From contig NC_017448.1 of the NCBI RefSeq assembly GCF_000146505.1, forward strand, positions 2,670,001 through 2,702,000: DNA of 32,000 nt. Reading direction: 5' to 3'. Position numbers and translations under genes: made by a program. This DNA comes from Fibrobacter succinogenes subsp. succinogenes S85 (GTDB lineage: Bacteria > Fibrobacterota > Fibrobacteria > Fibrobacterales > Fibrobacteraceae). Position 1 is the stretch's first letter, and each line of letters starts with the position of its first letter. Below, piece by piece: positions 5,852-15,019 of this stretch. The notes under the pieces were generated by a model that was not told the DNA's origin, did not search any database, and saw nothing but the letters and a program-made list of their open reading frames with translations.

Positions 5852-7246
5852 TTACATGGCTTCGAGCTTCTTGCCCTTGGTTTCGTTCACCAGCTTGGCG
5901 ACTAACACAAAGCTTATTGCTGCGAAGGTCGTGTAAATCAAGTAGGTCGGGCCGATGCCGATGCCGTCCTTGCCGACGAGAACCGGGAAAGACCAGCTGA
6001 CCAAGAAGTTTGCACCCCACTGGGCAAGGCCGCATATTGCGATTGCCACGGCACGAATGCGGTTGTTGAACATTTCGCCAAGCATCACCCACATCACCGG
6101 GCCCCATGTTGCGGCAAAGAATGCCACGTAGAAGTTTGCAGCGAGGAGGGCGAAAATACCGCTATTGCCTGTGAGGTTACCGCTAGCGTCGGAACCGAAG
6201 AGGAAGCAGCACGCGAGAATGCCAAGCGTAACGGTCATGCCTGCAGAACCGATGAGCAAGAGCGGCTTACGACCAATCTTATCGATAAGGAGAATAGCAG
6301 CGATAGTCATGGTCAAGTTGATAGCACTGGAAATCACGCTCGTAAGGAATGCATCGCTTTCACCGAAACCGACACTCTGCCAAAGCATGGAACCATAGTA
6401 GAAGATCATGTTAATACCCACGAGCTGCTGGAGAATGGCGATACTGAGGCCAGCCCAGACAATCGGAGCGACGCGCTTTTTGCCAGCGACCGTTTCGAGG
6501 AGGTCAGAAAGCTTGGCCGGCTTGTGAGTCTTGAAGGAGTCTTCAATTTCCTGAGCCTTTTCCTTGATGCCGACGGATGCAATCATCGAAAGCACTTTCT
6601 GAGCTTCTTCCATGCGGCCCTTGCTCACGAGGAAACGCGGGGATTCCGGGAGCTGCCAGGCGGCGACACCGTAGAGGAAAGCCGGGATAGCTTCGACCCA
6701 GAACATCACCTTCCAGGATTCAATGCCCATAATCAAGTTGCTTGCGGAACCCGAAATGCGGACAATGATGTAGTTCGAAAGCAGCGCCACGAAGATACCG
6801 ATAACGATGGCGAACTGCTGCATGGAGCCTAGACGCCCACGCAAATGCGCCGGGGAGGTTTCGGCAATGTAAATCGGGGCGATGATAGATGCTACACCGA
6901 TACCCACACCGCCAATCACGCGCCAAGCAATGAAATCGTAGATGGTGAAGGGGAGGCCAGAACCGATTGCGCTGATAAAGAAAAGGACGGCGGCTGCAAG
7001 CATGCAACGCACACGTCCAAACTTATCTGCCAAGCGACCGGCGAAATATGCACCGATGGCAGCGCCAATCAATGCGAGAGAAACCGCAAGACCAAGCTGC
7101 ATGTCGTTACAATTGAAGTAACCTTTAAGTGCAACGTTGGCGCCGTTAATCACGGACGAGTCAAAACCGAATAGGAACCCTCCGATGGCGGCGGAAAGGG
7201 TTATCATGATGACATGTCCAACTTTGTAATTGTCTTCTACTGCCAT
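5852..7246 (-). CDS. MFS sugar porter family transporter (sugar:H+ symporter)
   Basis: 12-TM protein with sugar-porter motifs GRLADKFGRVR, PESPRFL and NETKGKKLE. The likely start is MAVEDNYKVG (ATG at 7246), which has an upstream AGAGG. The longer ORF to 7306 adds a non-conserved leader. Confidence 0.85.
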   Translation of the reverse strand: MAVEDNYKVGHVIMITLSAAIGGFLFGFDSSVINGANVALKGYFNCNDMQLGLAVSLALIGAAIGAYFAGRLADKFGRVRCMLAAAVLFFISAIGSGLPFTIYDFIAWRVIGGVGIGVASIIAPIYIAETSPAHLRGRLGSMQQFAIVIGIFVALLSNYIIVRISGSASNLIMGIESWKVMFWVEAIPAFLYGVAAWQLPESPRFLVSKGRMEEAQKVLSMIASVGIKEKAQEIEDSFKTHKPAKLSDLLETVAGKKRVAPIVWAGLSIAILQQLVGINMIFYYGSMLWQSVGFGESDAFLTSVISSAINLTMTIAAILLIDKIGRKPLLLIGSAGMTVTLGILACCFLFGSDASGNLTGNSGIFALLAANFYVAFFAATWGPVMWVMLGEMFNNRIRAVAIAICGLAQWGANFLVSWSFPVLVGKDGIGIGPTYLIYTTFAAISFVLVAKLVNETKGKKLEAM

Positions 7247-7308
7247 TTTCGTACCTCTGTTTTTTTTTTGATTTTCAAATGGATTAGCCGCTAATATAGC
7301 TATCAAGA

Positions 7309-7333
7309 AATTGTAAATTCAAGGTTTACAATT
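7309..7333. promoter_or_regulatory. perfect 9-bp inverted repeat AATTGTAAA-N7-TTTACAATT upstream of the sugar porter (candidate operator)
   Basis: Read directly at 7309-7317 and 7325-7333, about 65-85 nt upstream of the 7246 start on the minus strand. Confidence 0.4.
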
Positions 7334-7620
7334 AATCTCGATAGTCCAAAAAGGACTAACGTTTTTCTTACATAAGTCGAAAGTTGTGGCTTCACTGCTC
7401 CCGTCCTATTTAAAAATAGATATATATAATTTTCTTACAATGGGCGAATTTTTTGCAAAAAATGTGAATTTATTTTGGAATATAGGGAAGGTGGGAAGGG
7501 GGTGTTTTGGGCTGCTTTGGCGCGGTGGCGCATTGCCGTATTTTTCGCTATTTTCTAAATTTGCTCACGAAAATTTAAAGCCCGATAGTTGGTGCAAGAC
7601 TGCAACGAACTAGGCGAAAA

Positions 7621-7675: not shown

Positions 7676-10600
7676 ATGTTTCGTGAAGTAAAGAAAGAAG
7701 AGACCTTCCCGCAGATCGAAGAGCGCGTGCTCGGATTGTGGGACAAGGACGATAGTTTCAAGAAGTCGCTTGACAGCCGTCCGGAAACCGAACCGTATAC
7801 TTTCTATGATGGCCCTCCGTTTGCAACGGGCCTTCCGCACTACGGTCACTTGCTTGCCGGTACCATCAAGGACATCGTTCCGCGTTACTGGACCATGAAG
7901 GGCAAGAAGGTTCCGCGCGGTTTCGGTTGGGACTGCCACGGTCTTCCGATTGAATCTCTCGTGCAGAACGAACTCGGTCTCGCTGGCGTTGCCGAAATCC
8001 AGAAGCTCGGCGTCGACAAGTTCAACGAAACTTGCCGCGGCAAGGTGCTCAAGTACACAAGCGAATGGAAGAAGACCGTTCGCCGCATGGGCCGCTGGGT
8101 CGACTTCGACAAGGGCTACAAGACCATGGACAAAAACTTCATGGAATCTGTGTGGTGGGTGTTCAAGCAGTGCTTCGACAAGGGCCTTATCTACCAGGGC
8201 TACCGCATCCAGCCGTACAGCCCGGCTCTCGCAACTCCGCTTTCGAACTTCGAAACGAACCAGGGCTATAAGGACCGTCAGGATCCGTCTTTGACGCTCA
8301 TCTTCCCGCTTAACACGGATGAAGCCAAGTTCAAGGACACGAGCATCCTCGTGTGGACGACGACCCCTTGGACACTTTATTCCAACTTCTGCATTGTTGT
8401 TGGCCCGGACATGGACTACAACCTTGTGGAACAGGATGGCAAGAAGTACTGGATTGCCGCAAGCCGTACCGCTGCTTACTTCAAGAACCCGAACATCGTT
8501 GATACCTGCAAGGGCTCTGAACTCGTGGGTAAGGACTACGAACCGCTTTCCCGTATCTCCGATGCATTCGTGACGCCGGACCAGCTGTCCCGCCACTACA
8601 AGATTTACCCCGCCGACTACGTGAGTACCGAAGACGGTACCGGCGCCGTGCATACCGCTCCCTCCTTCGGTGAAGAAGACTTCCAGAAGGGTGCTGAACT
8701 CGACCTCGGCCTTTTCGACCCGCTCGATACCGAAGGCAAGTTCACGGACAAGGTCCCGATGTGGAAGGGCCTTGGTGCGAAGGAAGCCGACAAGGAAATT
8801 ATCCGCTTCTTCAAGGAACAGGGCCGCGTGTTCAAGCAGGACACGATCGTGCATAGCTACCCGCACTGCTGGCGTACCGGCGTTCCTCTGATTTACCGCG
8901 CCCTCAAGACTTGGTTCTTGAAGATTGACGCGCCTGTCACAAGCAAGGACGGTGTGACCAAGACTCTGAAGGAATGGATGGTTGAAAACAACCAGACCGT
9001 GAACTGGGTTCCGGACCACATCAAGAACGGCCGTTTCGGCAAGTGGCTCGAAGGCGCTCGCGACTGGAACCTTTCTCGTAACCGCTTCTGGGGTACGCCG
9101 ATTCCGGTGTGGCTCTCTGACGACGGCGACATGATTGCCGTGGGTTCCATCGAAGAACTCCAGCAGCTCACTGGCGTGAAGCTCGATGACTTGCACAAGC
9201 ACTTTGTGGACAAGCTTACCATCGAAAAGAATGGCAAGGTCTACCGCCGCACGCCGGAAGTTTTCGACTGCTGGTTTGAATCCGGTTCTATGCCGTATGC
9301 AAGCCGCCATTACCCGTTTGAAAACAAGGAACTCGTGGAACGCAGCTTCCCGGCAGACTTCATTGCCGAAGGCCTTGACCAGACTCGTGGTTGGTTCTAC
9401 ACGCTGACCGTGCTTTCTAACGCTTTGTTCCAGAAACCGGCTTTCAAGAACGTTATTGTGAACGGTATTATCTTGGCCGAAGACGGTTCCAAGATGAGTA
9501 AGTCCAAGCGCAACTACCCGGACCCGAACGACCTTATTGAACGCACGGGTGCCGACGCCATTCGCTTGTTCATGATCAACTCCGCCGCTTTGAAGGCTGA
9601 AGACCTCCGCTTCAGTGAAGAAGGCGTGAAGGGCATCGTCAAACAGGTGATGTTGCCGCTCTGGAACGCCGTGGCATTCTTTGTCTCTAACCACAACGCT
9701 GATGCTGCCAAGGGCCAGCTCACGTGGAAGCCCGGTCAGGAAGTGAAGTCTGACAACGAACTGGACCGCTGGATGCTTGCAACGCTGCAGGATCTCGCTG
9801 CCAAGGTTGAAGTTGAAATGAAGGCTTACCGCCTGTACAACGTGGTGCCTGCCGTGATTGCCGCGGTTGATGACCTCACGAACTGGTACGTGCGCCGCAG
9901 CCGCCGCCGCTTCTGGAAGAGCGAAAATGATGGTGACAAGAACGCTGCCTACGCAACCATGTACAAGGTGCTCGTAGACTTCTCCAAGATTCTCGCTCCG
10001 TTCCTCCCGCTCCTCGCCGAAGAAATCTACCAGATTCTCGTGCGCGAAGTCGATGCTAACGCTCCGGTGAGTGTACACCTCTGCGAATTCCCGAGTGCTG
10101 ACAAGTCCCTCATGGACGAAAAGCTTGTGGAACGCATCGCCATGGTGCGTGGCATGGTCGAAATGGGTCGCGTGATTCGTGCAACGAACAACGTAAAGAA
10201 CCGTATGCCGATTGCCAGCATGACGGTCGTTGCTCACGGTAACGAAGAAAAGAACGTTGCTGAAACGATGAAGGACTTGATTCTCGAAGAACTCAACGTT
10301 CGCGAAATGAAGTTCCTCGAAGACGAAACCAAGCTTGTGAAACTCTCTGCAAAGCCGAACTTCCTCGCTATCAAGGCGAAGGGTCCGGATTACGCGAAGA
10401 ACATGAAGGTGATTTCCGCGAAGTTGAATTCGTTGACCGTCGACGAAATCAAGGCTCTGCAGAATGGCGAAACCATCAAGTTCGACTTCGGTGAAGTCGG
10501 TGCCGACTGCCTGATGCTCAACCGCATCGTGGCCGACGGCATGGCCGTGGAAGCCAACCAGCACTTCACCGTGGCTCTGGACCTGAAGATCACGGACGAA

Positions 10601-10861
10601 CTCCGCCGCGCCTGCGTGGCCCGCGAACTCGTGAACCGTATCCAGAACCGCCGTAAGGACCAGAACTACGCCATCACCGACAAGATCGAAGTGACGCTGT
10701 TCTCTGCAAGCGAAGTCTTCAAGCAGGCTGTCGCGGAGAACGAGGCTTACATCGCCGGCGAAACTCAGGCCGTGAAGATTGCCTGGGCGGCCGCTGCCGA
10801 TGGCTTGGAAGCGAATGACGCCGACGGCGAAGCATTCAGTTTCACGACCGTTAAGGCATAA
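7676..10861 (+). CDS. ileS: isoleucine--tRNA ligase, type 2 (eukaryote-like) form, intact, carrying C-terminal tail type A
   Basis: Start MFREVKKEETFPQIEERVLGLWDKDDSFKKS (ATG 7676, AGAGG at 7664-7668). Class I motifs are PHYGHLLAG (HIGH) and KMSKSKRN (KMSKS), plus a WCxSR-like region. The protein is 1061 aa. The 7589 start in the ORF track is a leader extension running through the heptamer repeat. Confidence 0.95.
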   Translation: MFREVKKEETFPQIEERVLGLWDKDDSFKKSLDSRPETEPYTFYDGPPFATGLPHYGHLLAGTIKDIVPRYWTMKGKKVPRGFGWDCHGLPIESLVQNELGLAGVAEIQKLGVDKFNETCRGKVLKYTSEWKKTVRRMGRWVDFDKGYKTMDKNFMESVWWVFKQCFDKGLIYQGYRIQPYSPALATPLSNFETNQGYKDRQDPSLTLIFPLNTDEAKFKDTSILVWTTTPWTLYSNFCIVVGPDMDYNLVEQDGKKYWIAASRTAAYFKNPNIVDTCKGSELVGKDYEPLSRISDAFVTPDQLSRHYKIYPADYVSTEDGTGAVHTAPSFGEEDFQKGAELDLGLFDPLDTEGKFTDKVPMWKGLGAKEADKEIIRFFKEQGRVFKQDTIVHSYPHCWRTGVPLIYRALKTWFLKIDAPVTSKDGVTKTLKEWMVENNQTVNWVPDHIKNGRFGKWLEGARDWNLSRNRFWGTPIPVWLSDDGDMIAVGSIEELQQLTGVKLDDLHKHFVDKLTIEKNGKVYRRTPEVFDCWFESGSMPYASRHYPFENKELVERSFPADFIAEGLDQTRGWFYTLTVLSNALFQKPAFKNVIVNGIILAEDGSKMSKSKRNYPDPNDLIERTGADAIRLFMINSAALKAEDLRFSEEGVKGIVKQVMLPLWNAVAFFVSNHNADAAKGQLTWKPGQEVKSDNELDRWMLATLQDLAAKVEVEMKAYRLYNVVPAVIAAVDDLTNWYVRRSRRRFWKSENDGDKNAAYATMYKVLVDFSKILAPFLPLLAEEIYQILVREVDANAPVSVHLCEFPSADKSLMDEKLVERIAMVRGMVEMGRVIRATNNVKNRMPIASMTVVAHGNEEKNVAETMKDLILEELNVREMKFLEDETKLVKLSAKPNFLAIKAKGPDYAKNMKVISAKLNSLTVDEIKALQNGETIKFDFGEVGADCLMLNRIVADGMAVEANQHFTVALDLKITDELRRACVARELVNRIQNRRKDQNYAITDKIEVTLFSASEVFKQAVAENEAYIAGETQAVKIAWAAAADGLEANDADGEAFSFTTVKA
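10287..10326 (+). repeat. left copy of a 40-nt exact direct repeat inside ileS (island-bounding repeat); near-identity continues for about 95 nt more
   Basis: AAGAACTCAACGTTCGCGAAATGAAGTTCCTCGAAGACGA is identical at 10287-10326 and 13607-13646. The next ~95 nt (10327 onward versus 13720 onward) differ at one position, and then divergence rises sharply. Confidence 0.9.
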
Positions 10862-11043
10862 TCAAGGGTGACTACCGCCCGAGGCGAGTGTAGCGCGAGA
10901 ACTTGTTCTCGCATTACCGAGCCGTTGCGGTAGGGCGCCTTGCGCCAAACTCAGGCTAACGCTATCGTGTGGAAGGATTCTGCTGCTGGCTTGCAGGAAT
11001 CTGATGCAGATGGCGAAAAGGTTGCAGTCGAAGCGGTGAAATA
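10861..11043 (+). pseudogene. orphan ileS C-terminal tail fragment (type B), starting at the ileS stop codon and split by element E1
   Basis: ATCAAGGGTGA [E1] AACTCAGGCTAACGCTATCGTGTGGAAGGATTCTGCTGCTGGCTTGCAGGAATCTGATGCAGATGGCGAAAAGGTTGCAGTCGAAGCGGTGAAATAA is collinear with 14146-14251 of the second copy. It would encode IKGETQANAIVWKDSAAGLQESDADGEKVAVEAVK*. It is not in frame with ileS. Confidence 0.85.
10872..10947 (+). mobile_element. structured 76-nt insertion element, copy E1
   Basis: CTACCGC...GCGGTAG forms a 7-bp outer helix. Conserved AGGCGAG and CCGAGCC strands flank an internal helix capped by a CTTG loop (GCGAGAA CTTG TTCTCGC). A 3' hairpin is GGCGC CTT GCGCC. It is inserted in GGTGA^AACTC of type-B tail sequence, with a 1-nt boundary ambiguity. 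Confidence 0.75.
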
Positions 11044-11066
11044 AATAGACTGTTGCTGACAATTGC

Positions 11067-11103
11067 AAAAGGACCCCGGTTTTTACTGAGGTCCTTTTGT
11101 TTA
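11067..11103 (+). terminator. hairpin plus T-run after the ileS tail stack (possibly bidirectional with the XRE gene)
   Basis: AAAAGGACC (11067-11075) pairs with GGTCCTTTT (11090-11098), followed by GTTT. The loop is large (14 nt), so confidence is moderate. Confidence 0.5.
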
Positions 11104-11135
11104 ATCCAAGACAATGGAATGTGGTTTGCTATAAA

Positions 11136-11531
11136 CTATTTGTTGTTGTGTCCGGATACTTTTGTCTTTTTCAGCTGTTGATGCTCTATATGGCGTAAAT
11201 CCAAAAGTTCTGAAAGGTTTATGCCCAAGGCGTTTGCCATCTCAATCAGAGTGACGAGACGAGGATTTCTTGAACCATTAATGGATCTTGTGATTGTTGA
11301 TTTGGTAAGTCTATTCTCGTAAGCAAATTTTTCAATAGTTGCATAACCCGCATCCTGTATTTTCTGTCGGATGTTCTCTCGAATGTGTGTTATAGTCACT
11401 TCGGGGTCTAGCATACTCCCCAAAGCTAGCGAATAGACCTTCTCGTATAGTTGCCGTATGGCAACTGAATTGGAGGGTTGTATTGAAAACATCTCGTGAA
11501 TCAGCCCGAACCGGACGTTGCCGTTTGGCAT
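11136..11531 (-). CDS. XRE-family helix-turn-helix transcriptional regulator
   Basis: C-terminal HTH_3-like segment (FAYENRLTKSTITRSINGSRNPRLVTLIEMANALGINLSELL). The ATG at 11531 (MPNGNV...) is overlapped by an operator palindrome. The track start at 11534 is a TTG one codon upstream. Confidence 0.8.
   Translation of the reverse strand: MPNGNVRFGLIHEMFSIQPSNSVAIRQLYEKVYSLALGSMLDPEVTITHIRENIRQKIQDAGYATIEKFAYENRLTKSTITRSINGSRNPRLVTLIEMANALGINLSELLDLRHIEHQQLKKTKVSGHNNK
11449..11466. promoter_or_regulatory. operator-like palindrome AGTTGCC-GTAT-GGCAACT inside the XRE coding region
   Basis: Perfect 7+4+7 palindrome with the same TTGCC-N4-GGCAA core as the three sites in the divergent intergenic region. 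Confidence 0.55.
11517..11531. promoter_or_regulatory. operator-like palindrome GTTGCC-GTTT-GGCAT overlapping the XRE start codon
   Basis: TTGCCGTTTGGCA at 11518-11530. Its reverse complement is ATGCCAAACGGCAA, which encodes MPNGN. Confidence 0.6.
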
Positions 11532-11591
11532 CAAAAATCGTGGAAAAAAACTTTTTTTGAATGGTTATTGAAAGAAAATTGGTGAAAAAAT

Positions 11592-11609
11592 GGTTGCCGT
11601 TTGGCAACC
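11592..11609. promoter_or_regulatory. operator-like palindrome GGTTGCC-GTTT-GGCAACC
   Basis: Perfect 7+4+7 palindrome in the divergent XRE / small-ORF intergenic region. Confidence 0.65.
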
Positions 11610-11630
11610 GGTAATGTATATTGACTTGGT

Positions 11631-11646
11631 GTTGCCATTTGGCAAT
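11631..11646. promoter_or_regulatory. operator-like palindrome GTTGCC-ATTT-GGCAAT, directly after a TTGACT hexamer
   Basis: TTGCCATTTGGCAA at 11632-11645, with TTGACT at 11621-11626 immediately upstream. This geometry fits a promoter-occluding operator. Confidence 0.6.
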
Positions 11647-11721
11647 TTGTAAGGTAAATACTAGTCGCGAACGTTCCCACACGGCTAGATATAGGATAAT
11701 TGGGGCAAAAAGGATAATAAT

Positions 11722-11907
11722 ATGATTGGATCTGCAATACAGAAGGGCTCGTCCGTTTATGTGTTTAATGAAAAGGGTGTACAAATATGGTCTAGACCAT
11801 CCGATGCACTTATAGGTTTTACATCATCTTCTGTGACCGTAAGAGTGGGAAATAATGCACGTATATATGATGAAAAAGGGGTTCATAAATACACCAAATC
11901 ACTTTGA
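11722..11907 (+). CDS. small (61 aa) hypothetical protein with an internal repeat
   Basis: ATG is preceded by AAAGGAT. The motif is repeated: SSVYVFNEKGVQI and NARIYDEKGVHKY, separated by GFTSSSVTVRVG. It has no TM segment or signal peptide and is transcribed divergently from the XRE gene. Confidence 0.6.
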   Translation: MIGSAIQKGSSVYVFNEKGVQIWSRPSDALIGFTSSSVTVRVGNNARIYDEKGVHKYTKSL

Positions 11908-12028
11908 TTTTTTCTTTTTTTTGTAAACAATTGAAAACGGGTGCAACTTTGTAGCCGTTTTGGAAAATTGTGAGAAAACAAACGGAATCCTTTACAGGAA
12001 AAAACTGACTAAATCATTGGGAGATGCT

Positions 12029-12790
12029 ATGGCAGCAAATGAATCTAGTTATAAAGATTCTCGTGATGGACATGTATATAAAACAGTTTTCATTGGCAAA
12101 CAGGAATGGTTTGCGGAAAATCTTTGTTTTGAAACATTGGATGAATGTTATTCGTATGACCAAACTGATCCCGGAATCCGTGACGAAATTGACGAACAAG
12201 AGGTGGTTGGTGGATATGGATATCTTTACACCATTGAAGCAGCCAAGGAAGCGGTTCCTGATGGCTGGCGTTTGCCTTCGGAGAAAGATTTTATTCAATT
12301 GACTAGAACGGTGGGTGTTCCTAAAATACAAACAATAAAGTTCCTGAGCAAATATTTAAAAGATAGCCTTTTTAATTGTGATAAAAGACGGGATAACGGC
12401 GTTAAGTGCAATCGCATTCAAAGTCCTTGCTGGAACGATGATTTCAAGGACCCTTTTGGTTTTTCTGCGCTTTATAGTGGATATGGAAGTCTTTTCGCAT
12501 CGGAAAAAGATGGATTCCGTGAGGAGTTTTTGAAATTCAAAGGGCGTGGAGGGTATGAGGAAGAAGATATGCATATTGAGGCTCGCTTGTGGATGTCTTC
12601 GGAACGCAATGGAAAACCTGCATATTTCTTTATAGAAGAAGATAGAGTTGGTTTTTGCGAAAAATTTGACAGGTCCTATAAGAAAATATTTTCGGGTGTT
12701 CCTGGCATGAATTTTGTAAACAAAATGGAAGCGATGGTAGAATCTGGTCGGTGCCTTTGTTCCGTTAGGCTAGTTCGCGATATGAAGTAA
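12029..12790 (+). CDS. Fibrobacter succinogenes major paralogous (FISUMP, TIGR02145-type) domain protein lacking a signal peptide
   Basis: Hallmark motifs are YKDSRDGHVYKTVFIGKQEWFAENL, GYGYLYT..A, PDGWRLPSEKDF, FGFSALYSGYG, ARLWMSSE and CSVRLVRD. ATG 12029 has GGGAG 7 nt upstream. The N-terminus MAANESSYKD is not hydrophobic. Confidence 0.8.
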   Translation: MAANESSYKDSRDGHVYKTVFIGKQEWFAENLCFETLDECYSYDQTDPGIRDEIDEQEVVGGYGYLYTIEAAKEAVPDGWRLPSEKDFIQLTRTVGVPKIQTIKFLSKYLKDSLFNCDKRRDNGVKCNRIQSPCWNDDFKDPFGFSALYSGYGSLFASEKDGFREEFLKFKGRGGYEEEDMHIEARLWMSSERNGKPAYFFIEEDRVGFCEKFDRSYKKIFSGVPGMNFVNKMEAMVESGRCLCSVRLVRDMK

Positions 12791-12830
12791 TCATCTCGTA
12801 TTGAAAAGCCTTAAACATATAGAATGCGAA

Positions 12831-13442
12831 ATGAGCGATAATAAAACTGTTCTTCAAGAGTTTGAATACGAGGATAAGTCTTTTTGGATTGAAGCGAAAA
12901 AATTAAAAAAGGTTCCTGGTTATTATAAATGGTGGGCTAAGGAAAAGCTTGTTAAAGAATTGTTGGATTGGTTAGGAAAAGAAGATCCTAAGTTTAAAAA
13001 ACTTGTAAAGTATGAAAAAATGAAGAGGGAGGGACATTTCGAGTATGACAAAACAAATACATATTGTTGCGTCTATGTAGGAAAGTCGGATAACGTTATA
13101 AGAAGAATTGTAGAAAATCATATTTGTGGCTCAATACGTAATTCAACTATGCGTAGGCATTTGGGGTATATTATACAGAACAAGATTACAAATAAATTTT
13201 TGGATAAAAAATTTTTGGAGAATGCTGTTAACGATATTATTCAACAAATGAAGGTGTCCTTTGTTGAGATAGAAAAAGGCCTAGATCAGGAAGAGACTTG
13301 TCAGATAAACAGAAAGTTGCATATTCTGAATGTTAAGAAAAACGATTATGGGGATAATTATTGTTGCCAACAAGCGAAAATGATAAAATGCAAGTTGGAA
13401 AATATGATGGACAGAAATGGGGATTCTGTTAGGAAAATTTAA
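12831..13442 (+). CDS. GIY-YIG superfamily nuclease domain protein
   Basis: PGYYKWWA (UvrC-like GIY strand), FEY-x9-YVGKSDNVIRRIVENH (YIG plus helix), a conserved Arg region (NSTMRRHLGYI) and a distal acidic/Asn pair (VSFVEIEKG...EETCQINRKLHILNVKKN). An alternative TTG start lies at 12801. Confidence 0.65.
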   Translation: MSDNKTVLQEFEYEDKSFWIEAKKLKKVPGYYKWWAKEKLVKELLDWLGKEDPKFKKLVKYEKMKREGHFEYDKTNTYCCVYVGKSDNVIRRIVENHICGSIRNSTMRRHLGYIIQNKITNKFLDKKFLENAVNDIIQQMKVSFVEIEKGLDQEETCQINRKLHILNVKKNDYGDNYCCQQAKMIKCKLENMMDRNGDSVRKI

Positions 13443-13482
13443 ATCTAAAGGACTACAAATTGCGGGTTATGTTCAATTCGCG

Positions 13483-13606
13483 TTAGGGGTAGTGACCCCT
13501 TGGGGCGGCACTGTGGTGCCGTTTTAGGAGGCGGGTGACGAGCGAAGCGATGACGGCTGCCCCTAAAATATAGCTCGACCCACGTAGTGGGGAACGCCCA
13601 AAAGAA
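13483..13606 (+). other. hairpin-dense junction segment between the island cargo and the displaced ileS fragment (candidate structured RNA or recombination site)
   Basis: Three perfect hairpins are present. They are AGGGGT-AGTG-ACCCCT (13485-13500), CGGCAC-TGTG-GTGCCG (13506-21) and CCCAC-GTA-GTGGG (13579-91). Competing long-range pairings include TTTTAGG (13522-28) with CCTAAAA (13562-68), and GGGGCGGC (13502-09) with GCTGCCCC (13556-63). Confidence 0.4.
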
Positions 13607-14251
13607 AAGAACTCAACGTTCGCGAAATGAAGTTCCTCGAAGACGACAAATGCGTAAGGCGAGAGTCGCGACCGTGCTTGCATGGGCATGACCGAGCCTA
13701 GCATTTGGTACGAAGTGCAAACCAAGCTTGTGAAGCTCTCTGCAAAGCCGAACTTCCTCGCTATCAAGGCGAAGGGTCCGGATTACGCGAAGAACATGAA
13801 GGTGATTTCCGCTAAGCTCAACAGCCTTACGGTTGATGAAATCAAGGCTCTCCAGGCTGGCGAAACCATCAAGTTCGAATTCGGTGAAGTTGGTGCTGAC
13901 TGCTTGATGCTCAACCGCATCGTTGCCGACGGCATGGCTGTGGAAGCCAACCAGCACTTCACTGTGGCTCTGAATTTGAAGATCACGGACGAACTCCGCC
14001 GCGCCTGCGTGGCTCGCGAACTCGTGAACCGCATCCAGAACCGCCGTAAGGACCAGAACTTTGCAATCTCAGACCGTATCAGCATTGAACTTTATTCTGA
14101 AAGCGAAGTGCTGAAGCAGGCTGTGAAGGAAAACGAATCTTACATCAAGGGCGAGACGCAGGCTGACGCTATCGTGTGGAAGGATTCTACTGCTGGTTTG
14201 CAGGAATCTGATGCAGATGGCGAAAAGGTCTTCGTCGAAGCTGTAAGATAA
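13607..14251 (+). pseudogene. ileS: displaced second copy of the ileS 3' end (last ~190 codons, type-B tail), split by element E2
   Basis: Collinear with 10287-10861. The first ~135 nt are nearly identical, then many differences are synonymous (for example KLNSLTVDEIKALQ is retained). The tail diverges to ...ESYIKGETQADAIVWKDSTAGLQESDADGEKVFVEAVR*. It has no 5' part of the gene, and the 73-nt E2 breaks the frame. Confidence 0.9.
13647..13719 (+). mobile_element. structured 73-nt insertion element, copy E2
   Basis: CAAATGC...GCATTTG forms the outer helix, with AGGCGAG and CCGAGCC strands, an apical CCGTG CTTG CATGG hairpin and a 3' hairpin GTAC GAA GTGC. It interrupts GAAGACGA^AACCAAGC, a sequence that is continuous in the intact ileS at 10326/10327. 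Confidence 0.85.
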
Positions 14252-14252
14252 T

Positions 14253-14490
14253 TTCATTGCAAGCGACAACCTCACAAGGCGAGAGCAGCGGCCACGCTTG
14301 CGTGGGCATTGCCGAGCCGAAGAGGTTGGGCACAAAGTGCCAAGTCTTCAAGCAGGCCGTCGCGGAGAATGAAACTTACATTGCGGGAGAGACGCAGGCT
14401 GTCGCCATCAAGTGGGCTGCCGTTGCCGATGGCTTGGAAGCGAATGACGCCGACGGCGAGGCCTTCAGCTTCACGACGGTAAAAGCGTAA
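14253..14490 (+). pseudogene. orphan ileS C-terminal tail fragment (type A'), starting 1-2 nt after the type-B stop and split by element E3
   Basis: TTCATTGCAAGCGA [E3] AGTCTTCAAGCAGGCCGTCGCGGAGAATGAA...ACGGTAAAAGCGTAA is collinear with ileS 10698-10861. It would encode FIASEVFKQAVAENETYIAGETQAVAIKWAAVADGLEANDADGEAFSFTTVKA*. Confidence 0.85.
14267..14342 (+). mobile_element. structured 76-nt insertion element, copy E3
   Basis: CAACCTC...GAGGTTG forms the outer helix, with AGGCGAG and CCGAGCC strands, an apical CCACG CTTG CGTGG hairpin and a 3' hairpin GGCAC AAA GTGCC. It interrupts GCAAGCGA^AGTCTTC, which is continuous in the intact ileS at 10713/10714. Confidence 0.85.
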
Positions 14491-14511
14491 CTCGAAAAAA
14501 TAAAAAATCTG

Positions 14512-14548
14512 AAAAAACGCTCTTTCCTTGCGAAAGGGCGTTTTTTTT
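14512..14548 (+). terminator. intrinsic terminator closing the ileS-derived block
   Basis: CGCTCTTTC (14518-26) pairs with GAAAGGGCG (14532-40) in 9 bp including one G.T. The loop is 5 nt and a T8 run follows at 14541-48. Confidence 0.8.
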
Positions 14549-14738
14549 GTTCAGATTTTCAAATCAGTTTACTTTTTCTTTTTGTTTTTCGATAATAATT
14601 ATGCGTATATTAGCATATATGCACCAGGCGTGCGTGGAAGGGGCCTGATTTTAGGGGACCTGGGGGAGCATCGTCGAAAATGGTGAAATTGCCGATTATG
14701 ATGGAAAAACGGCGTTTTTATTTAAAAAGGAGTCCAAT

Positions 14739-14900
14739 ATGGAAGAAAAACAAATTGAAAATGTTCAGAACCAGAACAACAAACCCGAAACTAACAAAAT
14801 CGTTCTTCCTCCAAAGAAAGGCGATCCCGGTTACGACGCGTTCATGAGGAGACTTTTTAGATCGGCTGCTTCGAACATGCTGAGGGATGACGAAATATAA
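14739..14900 (+). CDS. small hypothetical protein (53 aa), below the ORF-track cutoff
   Basis: AAGGAG lies 7 nt upstream of the ATG. The sequence is MEEKQIENVQNQNNKPETNKIVLPPKKGDPGYDAFMRRLFRSAASNMLRDDEI*. No similarity was recognised. Confidence 0.4.
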   Translation: MEEKQIENVQNQNNKPETNKIVLPPKKGDPGYDAFMRRLFRSAASNMLRDDEI

Positions 14901-14911
14901 AAGTGGGTAGA

Positions 14912-15019
14912 ATGATTATACAAGATTTGAAATCAACGCTTAACAATTTTTGGTTTTGGGCGAGTGTTGGTTTTTTTATATCCACGTTTGTCACAGAGTT
15001 GATTATTGAATTTTGTTAA
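14912..15019 (+). CDS. possible 35-aa hydrophobic peptide
   Basis: MIIQDLKSTLNNFWFWASVGFFISTFVTELIIEFC* has one predicted TM span. It starts 11 nt after the preceding stop and its RBS is weak. Confidence 0.3.
   Translation: MIIQDLKSTLNNFWFWASVGFFISTFVTELIIEFC

Follow-up and report, generated by a model that had tools for sequence, protein, structure and literature searches.

Stacked displaced gene ends and variable cargo at the isoleucyl-tRNA synthetase gene of Fibrobacter succinogenes S85

The 3' end of ileS, the isoleucyl-tRNA synthetase (IleRS) gene of Fibrobacter succinogenes subsp. succinogenes S85, is followed by a stack of displaced ileS ends with an island of cargo genes lodged among them. 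The locus was studied within a stretch of 32,000 nucleotides (nt; contig NC_017448.1, positions 2,670,001 to 2,702,000), referred to here as the window, whose own numbering is used below. Two structured repeats accompany the displaced pieces: E, of about 75 nt, and J, of 125 to 140 nt, which forms the right-hand end of the cargo. The same arrangement, filled with unrelated cargo, is found at ileS in other Fibrobacter genomes. Stacked displaced ends are not peculiar to ileS, as J-headed stacks also occur at thrS (arrays) and at leuS (one copy). On balance, and with some reserve, the explanation we favour for this aminoacyl-tRNA synthetase (aaRS) locus is a series of insertions with long target duplication, in which units equipped with a gene end of their own would have entered through homologous recombination. 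The order of parts is the one that a preliminary description of the sequence had proposed (ileS with tail A, a B remnant, a terminator, cargo, a second copy with tail B', an A' remnant and a terminator), and the parts lie at or near the positions it gave:

7676-10861, plus strand: intact ileS, an open reading frame of 1061 amino acids (aa) from MFREVKK, type-2 IleRS (NCBIfam TIGR00392), with tail A (..FSFTTVKA, stop)
10862-10871, plus strand: B-type stub of 10 nt, tcaagggtga (= IKGE), directly after the tail-A stop, recognized by comparison with B-type alleles
10872-10947, plus strand: E1, 76 nt, inserted at ggtGA^Aact; fold -38.3 kcal/mol, z = -4.3
10948-11044, plus strand: remainder of the displaced B-type tail (..TQANAIVWKDSAAGLQESDADGEKVAVEAVK, stop), 32 codons, 89% identical to the functional B tail of locus L035
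11065-11100, plus strand: intrinsic terminator that arrived with the tail-A end; -21.3 kcal/mol, z = -5.4, U run after the hairpin
11101-13476, no strand assigned: AT-rich cargo of about 2.4 kb, GC content 31-41%
13477-13599, plus strand: J, ending the cargo; defined by alignment, covariation and nhmmer matches
13600-13606, no strand assigned: A-rich linker between J and the displaced copy
13607-13646, plus strand: opening 40 nt of the displaced ileS copy, with no mismatch to 10287-10326 (100% identity)
13647-13719, plus strand: E2, 73 nt, inserted at gacGA^Aacc, 47 nt past the end of J
13720-14251, plus strand: displaced ileS 3' part, 177 codons, tail B' (..GEKVFVEAVR, stop); Pfam DUF5915, 5.5e-36
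14252-14266, plus strand: 15-nt stub of mainly A-type ileS sequence (tttcattgcaagcga), the 5' beginning of the older A' fragment; the same junction is present in L183
14267-14342, plus strand: E3, 76 nt, inserted at agcGA^Agtc; -40.2 kcal/mol, z = -4.6
14343-14490, plus strand: remainder of the displaced A' tail (VFKQAVAENETYIAGETQAVAIKWAAVADGLEANDADGEAFSFTTVKA, stop), 48 codons, the oldest end, recognized by its repeat match to tail A
14513-14548, plus strand: native ileS terminator, a hairpin and U run (z = -4.8), with the native downstream genes after it

The intact gene is a clear IleRS, scoring 896 bits against TIGR00392 (cutoff 621; 2e-269). Its last 575 nt, 10287-10861, form the left copy of a long direct repeat, and the ileS-derived repeats in the window are far above chance expectation: 10318-10617 is 90% identical to 13711-14010, tail A (10710-10861) is 82% identical to A' (14339-14490), and the B fragment (10944-11072) is 80% identical to tail B' (14151-14279). 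The displaced copy that follows J (copy 2) is 100, 98 and 98% identical to the intact gene across the first 135 nt and less so beyond. Its frame is open through all 176 aligned codons, and the ratio of nonsynonymous to synonymous substitution rates (dN/dS) against the intact gene is 0.11, 0.10 and 0.19 in three segments. Near-identity over some 135 nt followed by largely synonymous divergence, as noted in the preliminary description, is thus borne out. A dN/dS of about 0.1 indicates divergence under purifying selection and, together with an open frame, argues that copy 2 is a formerly functional allele of another lineage that was displaced recently. Identity between copies 1 and 2 is patchy, and the patches vary from locus to locus, which points to homologous exchange and gene conversion and not to one fixed crossover.

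Related loci, which bear L numbers here, were collected through a scan for the E core with one genome per species and a metagenome scan with the ileS C-terminus that yielded 80 loci. A second ileS C-terminal match is present in 23 of these 80 metagenomic loci. Both tails can serve as working ends: tail A does so in L082, L065, L067 and L121, and tail B in L035, L174 and L183, which upholds the earlier view that copy 2 derives from a different, once-functional ileS allele. The A-only, B-only and intermediate states that the preliminary description had suggested looking for were also found (L185, L183 and the other A- and B-tail genomes). In L185, a functional A' tail is contiguous with DNA 95.5% identical to that downstream in the window. 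L183 has neither J nor E2; behind its intact ileS, which ends in tail B', come E3, the A' remnant and the downstream genes of the window. L183 is colinear with window positions 13607-14480 at 89% identity, and its intact ileS is colinear with the displaced 3' part at 13720-14251, also at 89%; relative to L183, the window holds an extra insert of 3.4 kb. The tail B' copy is therefore the resident gene end from before the arrival of the island, and the ends in the window can be ordered as A' oldest, then B', then A, with the newest nearest the gene.

The occupied state recurs as well. The succession of ileS, cargo, J, 40 nt, E and copy 2 is found in L129, L133, L136, L140, L161, L189 and L191; in L168, copy 2 starts further upstream and has no adjacent J, with E2 present. 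The junction of the tail-A stop with the B stub is shared by L044, L136, L140, L155 and L159, and the native terminator also lies 3' of ileS in L145, L148, L185 and L200. Recurrence of this order in many independent assemblies argues against an assembly artefact, a possibility that the preliminary description had raised as a way to overturn its claim. Sixteen loci that greedy chaining of blast matches had presented as hybrids of an A body and a B end were rejected as such; their sequences are plain B-type alleles.

What lies between the two gene ends differs from locus to locus, with genes for restriction-modification, toxin-antitoxin systems and Fib_succ_major lipoproteins predominating. J and copy 2 starting at ileS nt 10287 are common to loci with unrelated cargo. 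L136 and L140 carry DpnII, two methylases and a DndB-like gene; L125 an Eco57I-like type IIG enzyme; L128 a TaqI-like methylase and a restriction enzyme; L162 PDC-M09A; and L129 a 755-aa protein of no assigned function. Lipoproteins of the Fib_succ_major family with small partners make up the cargo of L161 and L173, and L168 carries PIN/VapBC toxin-antitoxin genes and a Fib_succ_major protein. L175 and L176 have no J and no E; there a methylase and two HNH proteins separate the new B end from an A remnant of 29 codons. Searches with Pfam, PADLOC and NCBIfam detected neither an integrase nor a transposase in the 32-kb window or in about 25 occupied loci. The cargo of the window itself, of which the part at 11100-13470 is matched by no other occupied locus, contains four genes:

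11136-11534, minus strand: helix-turn-helix (HTH) protein resembling restriction control (C) proteins (PADLOC control protein, 2.8e-6)
11722-11907, plus strand: open reading frame of 61 aa
11960-12790, plus strand: Fib_succ_major protein (Pfam)
12801-13442, plus strand: GIY_YIG_2 protein (Pfam, 1.5e-13)

This cargo thus combines a control-protein-like HTH protein with a protein bearing a GIY_YIG_2 nuclease domain, and has no methylase; the pair may represent the remains, or an unusual form, of a restriction or defence module. The GIY-YIG protein has no sequence relative in the PDB, and its assignment as an Eco29kI-like restriction enzyme was dropped, there being no PDB relative and no PADLOC match. 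The Fib_succ_major domain is a known target of diversity-generating retroelements; such an element was considered and rejected, since the islands showed neither a reverse transcriptase nor a template repeat. The remainder of the window is ordinary chromosome (GH8, dapF, glutamine synthetase and glutamate synthase genes), and ARAGORN finds no tRNA or tmRNA in it.

A further conserved, non-coding element of about 330 nt, here called K, lies directly upstream of Fib_succ_major genes in ileS and thrS islands and is absent from the island of the window. It consists of near-invariant blocks between covarying hairpins and, judged from its sequence, looks like a non-coding RNA gene or a long structured leader. 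Copies of K are located as follows:

L173, 3100-3440
L161, 800-1110
L201, 7869-8277 and 10951-11347
L055, about 7116-7444, minus strand
L162, 1419-1748
L132, 3758-4045
L148, 7553-7863

The J element consists of a closing helix, GCGTT/AACGC, and four hairpins. In the window it reads GCGTTAGGG...AATATAGCTCGACC, a hairpin and GGGGAACGCCC. Its structure is maintained, as 12 of 35 pairs remain paired through double changes. J always forms the right-hand end of the cargo, usually directly behind a Fib_succ_major gene (17 proteins at 11 loci), and its 3' end, GGGAACGCCC, abuts 5'-truncated gene copies. It is modular: the left two-thirds go with the cargo and the right third with the target, the break falling at an invariant AATATAGCCCG core. 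Blast of J against plasmids and phages gave no match, and a viral scan with the J 5' motif alone returned nothing. Downstream of the native terminator of the window, a 25-nt stretch on the minus strand (14633-14657) is 72% complementary to the J core region at 13560-13584 (CCCCTAAAATATAGCTCGACCCACG), either by chance or perhaps as the remains of a further J in inverted orientation.

J is not confined to one position or one gene. Within ileS its junctions fall at nt ~10287 and nt ~9251, or J stands past the stop codon with only a terminator after it. Elsewhere J is followed by truncated thrS (TIGR00418, 1e-139) beginning at aa ~98, ~209 or ~335, by one copy of truncated leuS (7e-66), and in one case by a gene end of no assigned identity. 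With the junction in L068, J abuts at least seven positions in three or four genes. In L202, a Fibrobacter contig of 179 kb, four to five J elements and three partial thrS copies are packed into 18 kb, and the unit of thrS 3' part, VapBC, a 270-aa protein and J occurs twice. L201 has two stacked copies of J, a fragment, E and thrS, with SIR2, DUF4238 and PIN cargo. J, the variable defence cargo and these J-headed copies at thrS and leuS were absent from the preliminary description. A search of the literature on Fibrobacter repeats or aaRS-anchored islands turned up nothing specific.

The distance from J to the next E is nearly constant at several of these junctions: 47 nt at ileS-10287, 47, 46 or 44 nt by lineage at thrS-209, 47 nt at thrS-335 and 41 nt at leuS. 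Earlier GA^A sites, the sequence at which E inserts, are present between J and E at these junctions, and other J junctions have no E. That such spacing arose at four independent junctions by chance is not credible; it may reflect directed insertion of E or selection for a module of J, 47 nt and E.

E itself is a Fibrobacter-wide structured repeat. Three copies lie in the window against none expected in shuffled sequence, and its core pattern is found in at least 120 places, essentially all of them in Fibrobacter or in Fibrobacteraceae metagenome-assembled genomes (MAGs), with no match in viral contigs. It folds into a long irregular hairpin and a small 3' hairpin, with the internal conserved motifs AGGCGAG and GCAT..CCGAGCC, an invariant G.T pair and a C.A mismatch. 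In the core, where the invariant G.T pair lies, seven of 14 pairs are kept through double changes. The outer helix is specific to each copy: helices of at least 6 bp form with the copy's own partner in 59% of cases, against 3.5% with permuted partners. The loops of the 3' hairpin are mostly C-GAA-G or C-GTA-G, types that are typical of stable DNA mini-hairpins. Rfam holds no family for E, J or K, whether the whole window was searched at gathering thresholds or regions 10000-15000 and 13440-13760, K and five related loci were searched permissively.

Insertion of E is clean at RRYGA^A; in the window it falls between GA and A of a GAA codon, with no target-site duplication at any of the three insertions, and the E copies lie 10, 40 and 15 nt from the 5' edge of their ileS fragments. 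Other ileS loci have it at NGE^T and DGE^A, and in thrS it is inserted at ACGCCGGA^A. About 22% of E copies occupy the stop codon of a same-strand open reading frame. The preliminary description had each displaced piece carrying one E, which is true in the window. E is a genome-wide repeat and not a feature of ileS. Nor is E a part of the displacement mechanism: the junction of a B stop with an A fragment lacks E in L174 and L179 and has it in L044, the junction of J with copy 2 lacks E2 in L125 and L128, and E1 has been lost in L160. The same junctions without E argue that E is dispensable for making displaced ends. Its persistence in dead copies is explained by the lethality that an insertion in the working gene would cause. 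The idea that E is read through, bypassed or spliced out was also considered and rejected, since E2 is 73 nt long, the frames are shifted with respect to the upstream stop, and no E is present in functional alleles.

Several other arrangements of E were seen. In L097, on the minus strand at about 6530-7290 (counted on the reverse complement), E lies between partial repeats inside an array of clustered regularly interspaced short palindromic repeats whose repeat unit is 36 nt long (GTCTTAATCTCTCTTGCGAGAGCAATGGCATTCTGAC), and a second nearby E is itself interrupted. Tandem arrays of E are present in L106 (774-1000, three copies, 77-nt period), in L060 (1857-2600, four copies, period ~205-245 nt) and in L016, L028, L073 and L077; the sequence past the 3' hairpin often repeats what precedes E. 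In L044, a distinct related repeat (480-640; core AAGGCGAATGTTGC...GTGAGCC) is nested within an E copy; that E in turn interrupts, at ggtGA^Aacc, an A-type ileS remnant of the third level (..LEANDADGE|TFSFTTVRA, stop). The E core begins 2-4 nt past the ileS stop in L131 (1628-1700), L138, L157, L164-L166, L168 (5211-5280), L198 (316-380) and L065/L067/L082. At those stops the last codons (AAAGCCTAG and similar) make the 5' strand of the E outer helix, and in L065 E is followed by 9 nt left over from an earlier end (AACGCGTAA). In L162 (5596-5900), one E joins ileS ending ..CAGAATGGCGA (window ~10472) to AGCCTTT.. (window ~10828), a join that implies that two E copies, inserted at separate GA^A sites, recombined and that about 350 nt were lost in the event.

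Insertion with long target duplication, without mobility genes and mostly in competent species, is a published pattern (PMC2853133). In the work of Furuta, Abe & Kobayashi 2010, such inserts are recognized by their absence from a related genome with aligned flanks, by flanking repeats of >30 bp, by a length of <20 kb, by the lack of mobile genes and by homologues of restriction (R) and modification (M) genes (PMC2853133). The present locus can be set beside that pattern point by point. L183 and L185 align with copy 2 and the downstream DNA and lack the insert; the one ileS 3' end present in L183, L082 and others aligns with 10287-10861 as well as with 13607-14251 once E2 is removed; and inserts measure 2.4-5.5 kb. 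R and M gene homologues are not in the window cargo, though both are in the sister loci L136, L128, L175 and L125. The match to the published pattern supports the long-target-duplication reading, and of the interpretations offered in the preliminary description, a mobile unit carrying its own ileS end fits best. On that reading, the ileS 3' end would be a recurrent landing site for units with their own ileS 3' part at the left and J at the right. A unit would enter by one homologous crossover within ileS, either as a circular copy (Campbell-type) or, equally, as linear DNA with both repeats (looped insertion). The product would be a working gene made of the host 5' part and the imported 3' part, then cargo, J and the host 3' part as a 5'-truncated dead copy. 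Repetition would stack old ends, and smaller, cargo-free tail swaps could have left the short remnants. The two repeats could then act as homology arms, so that strains exchange cargo and an ileS still without an island can acquire the complete structure.

Several points weigh against this account. No intact thrS or leuS was seen 5' of the truncated copies, as the contigs end first; for thrS, the contigs with ThrRS homologues yielded arrays of partial copies. The short remnants begin 0-6 nt past the new stop codon, with weak microhomology. The invariant J core in which the breakpoint lies measures about 14 nt, a length on the low side for RecA-type exchange that may indicate a dedicated enzyme. 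The many gene-internal junctions of J are beyond what homologous recombination can explain by itself, and the 47-nt spacing of J and E is likewise left unexplained. Lastly, any natural competence of Fibrobacter would be an assumption here.

These points bear on the alternatives, of which two give J a more active part. J might be the site of a recombinase encoded elsewhere, as in an integron, such that cassettes of content and J move by J x J recombination at AATATAGCCCG while events between J and pseudo-sites make circles with a gene 3' part. The independent assortment of the left two-thirds and right third of J would fit, as would the arrays of units each ending in J (L202, L201, L053 and L125) and a structure kept through covariation like that of attC sites. 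Two sequences might serve as pseudo-sites: CGTACGCC|GGAAG in ileS, whose ACGCC also occurs in the J end at the 9251 junction, and GTGAACGCCC in thrS, which precedes the part kept after J by 42 nt. However, no recombinase gene lies by any array or in the window, J is without the R''/R' motifs of integrons, the ileS-10287 junction has no ACGCC-like target, and the J mosaic could also come from homologous exchange between J copies; we regard this alternative as rather unlikely. By analogy with CTXphi on tandem prophages, rolling-circle copying from J to J, with pseudo-sites making new junctions, is another candidate. A slightly more probable, though still unlikely, proposal is that J and E are cis parts of a single-stranded DNA (ssDNA) mobility system akin to filamentous phages. 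A Rep protein of a helper phage or of the host would run from one J to the next and free a circle of J, gene 3' part and cargo, which would be transferred, made double-stranded and inserted in an aaRS gene, essential and highly conserved, by a single homologous crossover, with the captured gene end as address. The 3' half of J matches two related IMG/VR contigs, L204 and L205, circular inovirus genomes of ~7.3-7.8 kb with an intergenic J homologue beside a repressor gene. L205 (7.3 kb, 14-nt terminal repeat) encodes a rolling-circle Rep, Zot-like and coat-like proteins and an XRE repressor, and its full J homologue lies at 7073-7209 on the coding strand, by the 3' end of the repressor gene (nhmmer 1.5e-12). 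CTXphi likewise carries an attP, folded from single-stranded DNA, beside its repressor gene. Neither inovirus genome contains an integrase, and the Fibrobacter loci contain no phage proteins; the named relatives of the L205 Rep are from Neisseriaceae. If the proposal is true, the islands would be integrase-free, self-stacking arrays of defence cassettes anchored in aaRS genes, and the 47-nt J-E spacing would be a functional module, for instance a nick site and a second-strand origin. The circle model would in addition make a junction at GGGAACGCC^C or AATATAGCCCG the mark of the nick or crossover site.

The remaining alternatives are less probable still. Displacement could be driven by E, through its insertion or through one-ended, rolling-circle-type transposition of E with flanking ileS, given that E lies near the 5' edge of every displaced piece in the window, has hairpins of ssDNA type (C-GAA-G and C-GTA-G triloops) and GA^A insertion without target duplication, and in L162 joins two different ileS GA^A sites. 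The identical junctions without E (L174 and L179 against L044; L125 and L128 against others) make this improbable, as do the displaced tail and cargo of L175 and L176, which have no E; moreover, E is a clean insertion in contiguous ileS sequence and marks no junction, and most of the >=120 E copies elsewhere in Fibrobacter genomes have no duplicated gene end. The GIY_YIG_2 protein of the window and the mainly synonymous differences between imported and resident ileS ends recall intronless homing, in which the nuclease would cut an unoccupied ileS and repair would copy the island with a recoded, resistant end. Yet homing creates no duplication, the GIY-YIG gene is in no other occupied locus and cargos are unrelated, the first 175 nt of both ileS copies are near-identical and so not recoded, and the adjoining C-protein-like HTH gene suggests a restriction-system remnant; homing is very improbable. 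Least credible of all is a chimeric assembly of two strains, or an old, fixed and decaying tandem duplication. Assemblies do often break at such repeats, as where thrS of P0020 is cut by a contig end, but copy 2 is interrupted by E2 and J and so cannot have served a second strain as its working gene. The architecture is also repeated across many independent assemblies and MAGs with extensive presence/absence polymorphism and cargo turnover, and the two copies come from separate allele lineages that each have nested remnants and terminators of their own.

These loci show that accessory and anti-phage genes can re-colonise the interior of essential genes repeatedly while the cell survives and no recombinase is carried. 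The spare gene end both repairs the target and provides a homology address that is valid across strains and species. Together with K, the E and J elements structure a large part of the flexible genome in Fibrobacter, which is a key cellulose degrader of the rumen, and the repeats account for contig breaks and for 'partial aaRS' gene calls in Fibrobacter MAGs. If the link to ssDNA and filamentous phages is true, these islands would represent a new route of cassette mobility, integron-like in logic, and a natural template for placing DNA at essential genes without scar or integrase.

Several known systems share parts of this anatomy. Small repeats such as REP-RAYT (repetitive extragenic palindromes with their associated tyrosine transposases), Correia, ERIC (enterobacterial repetitive intergenic consensus), RPE (Rickettsia palindromic elements) and miniature inverted-repeat transposable elements resemble E in being multicopy, imperfect hairpins, often just past stop codons, that insert in coding sequence at a size of ~75 nt. 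E differs in that its helices covary where the others have conserved inverted repeats, in making no target duplication, in its RRYGA^A target and in being absent from Rfam. The orphan C-terminal modules of Rhs and contact-dependent growth inhibition (CDI) loci have the same topology, a full gene followed by 5'-truncated alternative C-terminal pieces with short homology; that part of the likeness drawn in the preliminary description holds, and the toxin and immunity modules are missing. Here the gene is the housekeeping ileS, its fragments are followed by E and terminators and not by immunity open reading frames, and there is no sign of a switching reservoir.

Integrons are similar in having arrays with structure-conserved terminal sites, as in L202 with its four to five covarying J elements in 18 kb. 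They differ in that no intI or attI lies near any array or in the 32-kb window, and J, which starts GCGTTAGGG and ends GGGAACGCCC, has the reverse box polarity of attC (RYYYAAC...GTTRRRY). The arrays of integrative mobile elements exploiting Xer (IMEX), such as CTXphi/RS1/TLC, are closer in some respects: they are integrase-less, with a cis site folded as ssDNA and tandem arrays copied by rolling circle from site to site, and J has its homologue in an inovirus genome beside a repressor gene. Their target is dif, whereas the targets here lie inside aaRS genes and the islands have no phage genes. Integrase-mediated islands, integrative and conjugative elements and prophages at the 3' ends of tRNA or protein genes also bring a replacement 3' end that keeps the target functional, displace the old end to the far side and form tandem arrays. 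They rely on an integrase, which is missing here, and on a short identical core, where the present repeat spans hundreds of nt, is mosaic and has junctions of varying position.

The nearest counterpart is the long target duplication of restriction-modification units (Nobusato et al. 2000; PMC2853133), which likewise places a unit of <20 kb between long direct repeats that align to one empty-site sequence, often over a gene 3' end, with no mobility genes and with allelic substitution of cargo. In the Fibrobacter islands, the target is 575 nt (to ~1.6 kb elsewhere) of an essential aaRS gene and its two copies represent distinct alleles; insertions pile up, J with its conserved structure always closes the right side, J-headed copies are present at ileS, thrS and leuS, and the window cargo is without a methylase. 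To long target duplication and to islands that replace gene 3' ends, the Fibrobacter loci add the two undescribed structured elements E and J and a reach over three aaRS genes.

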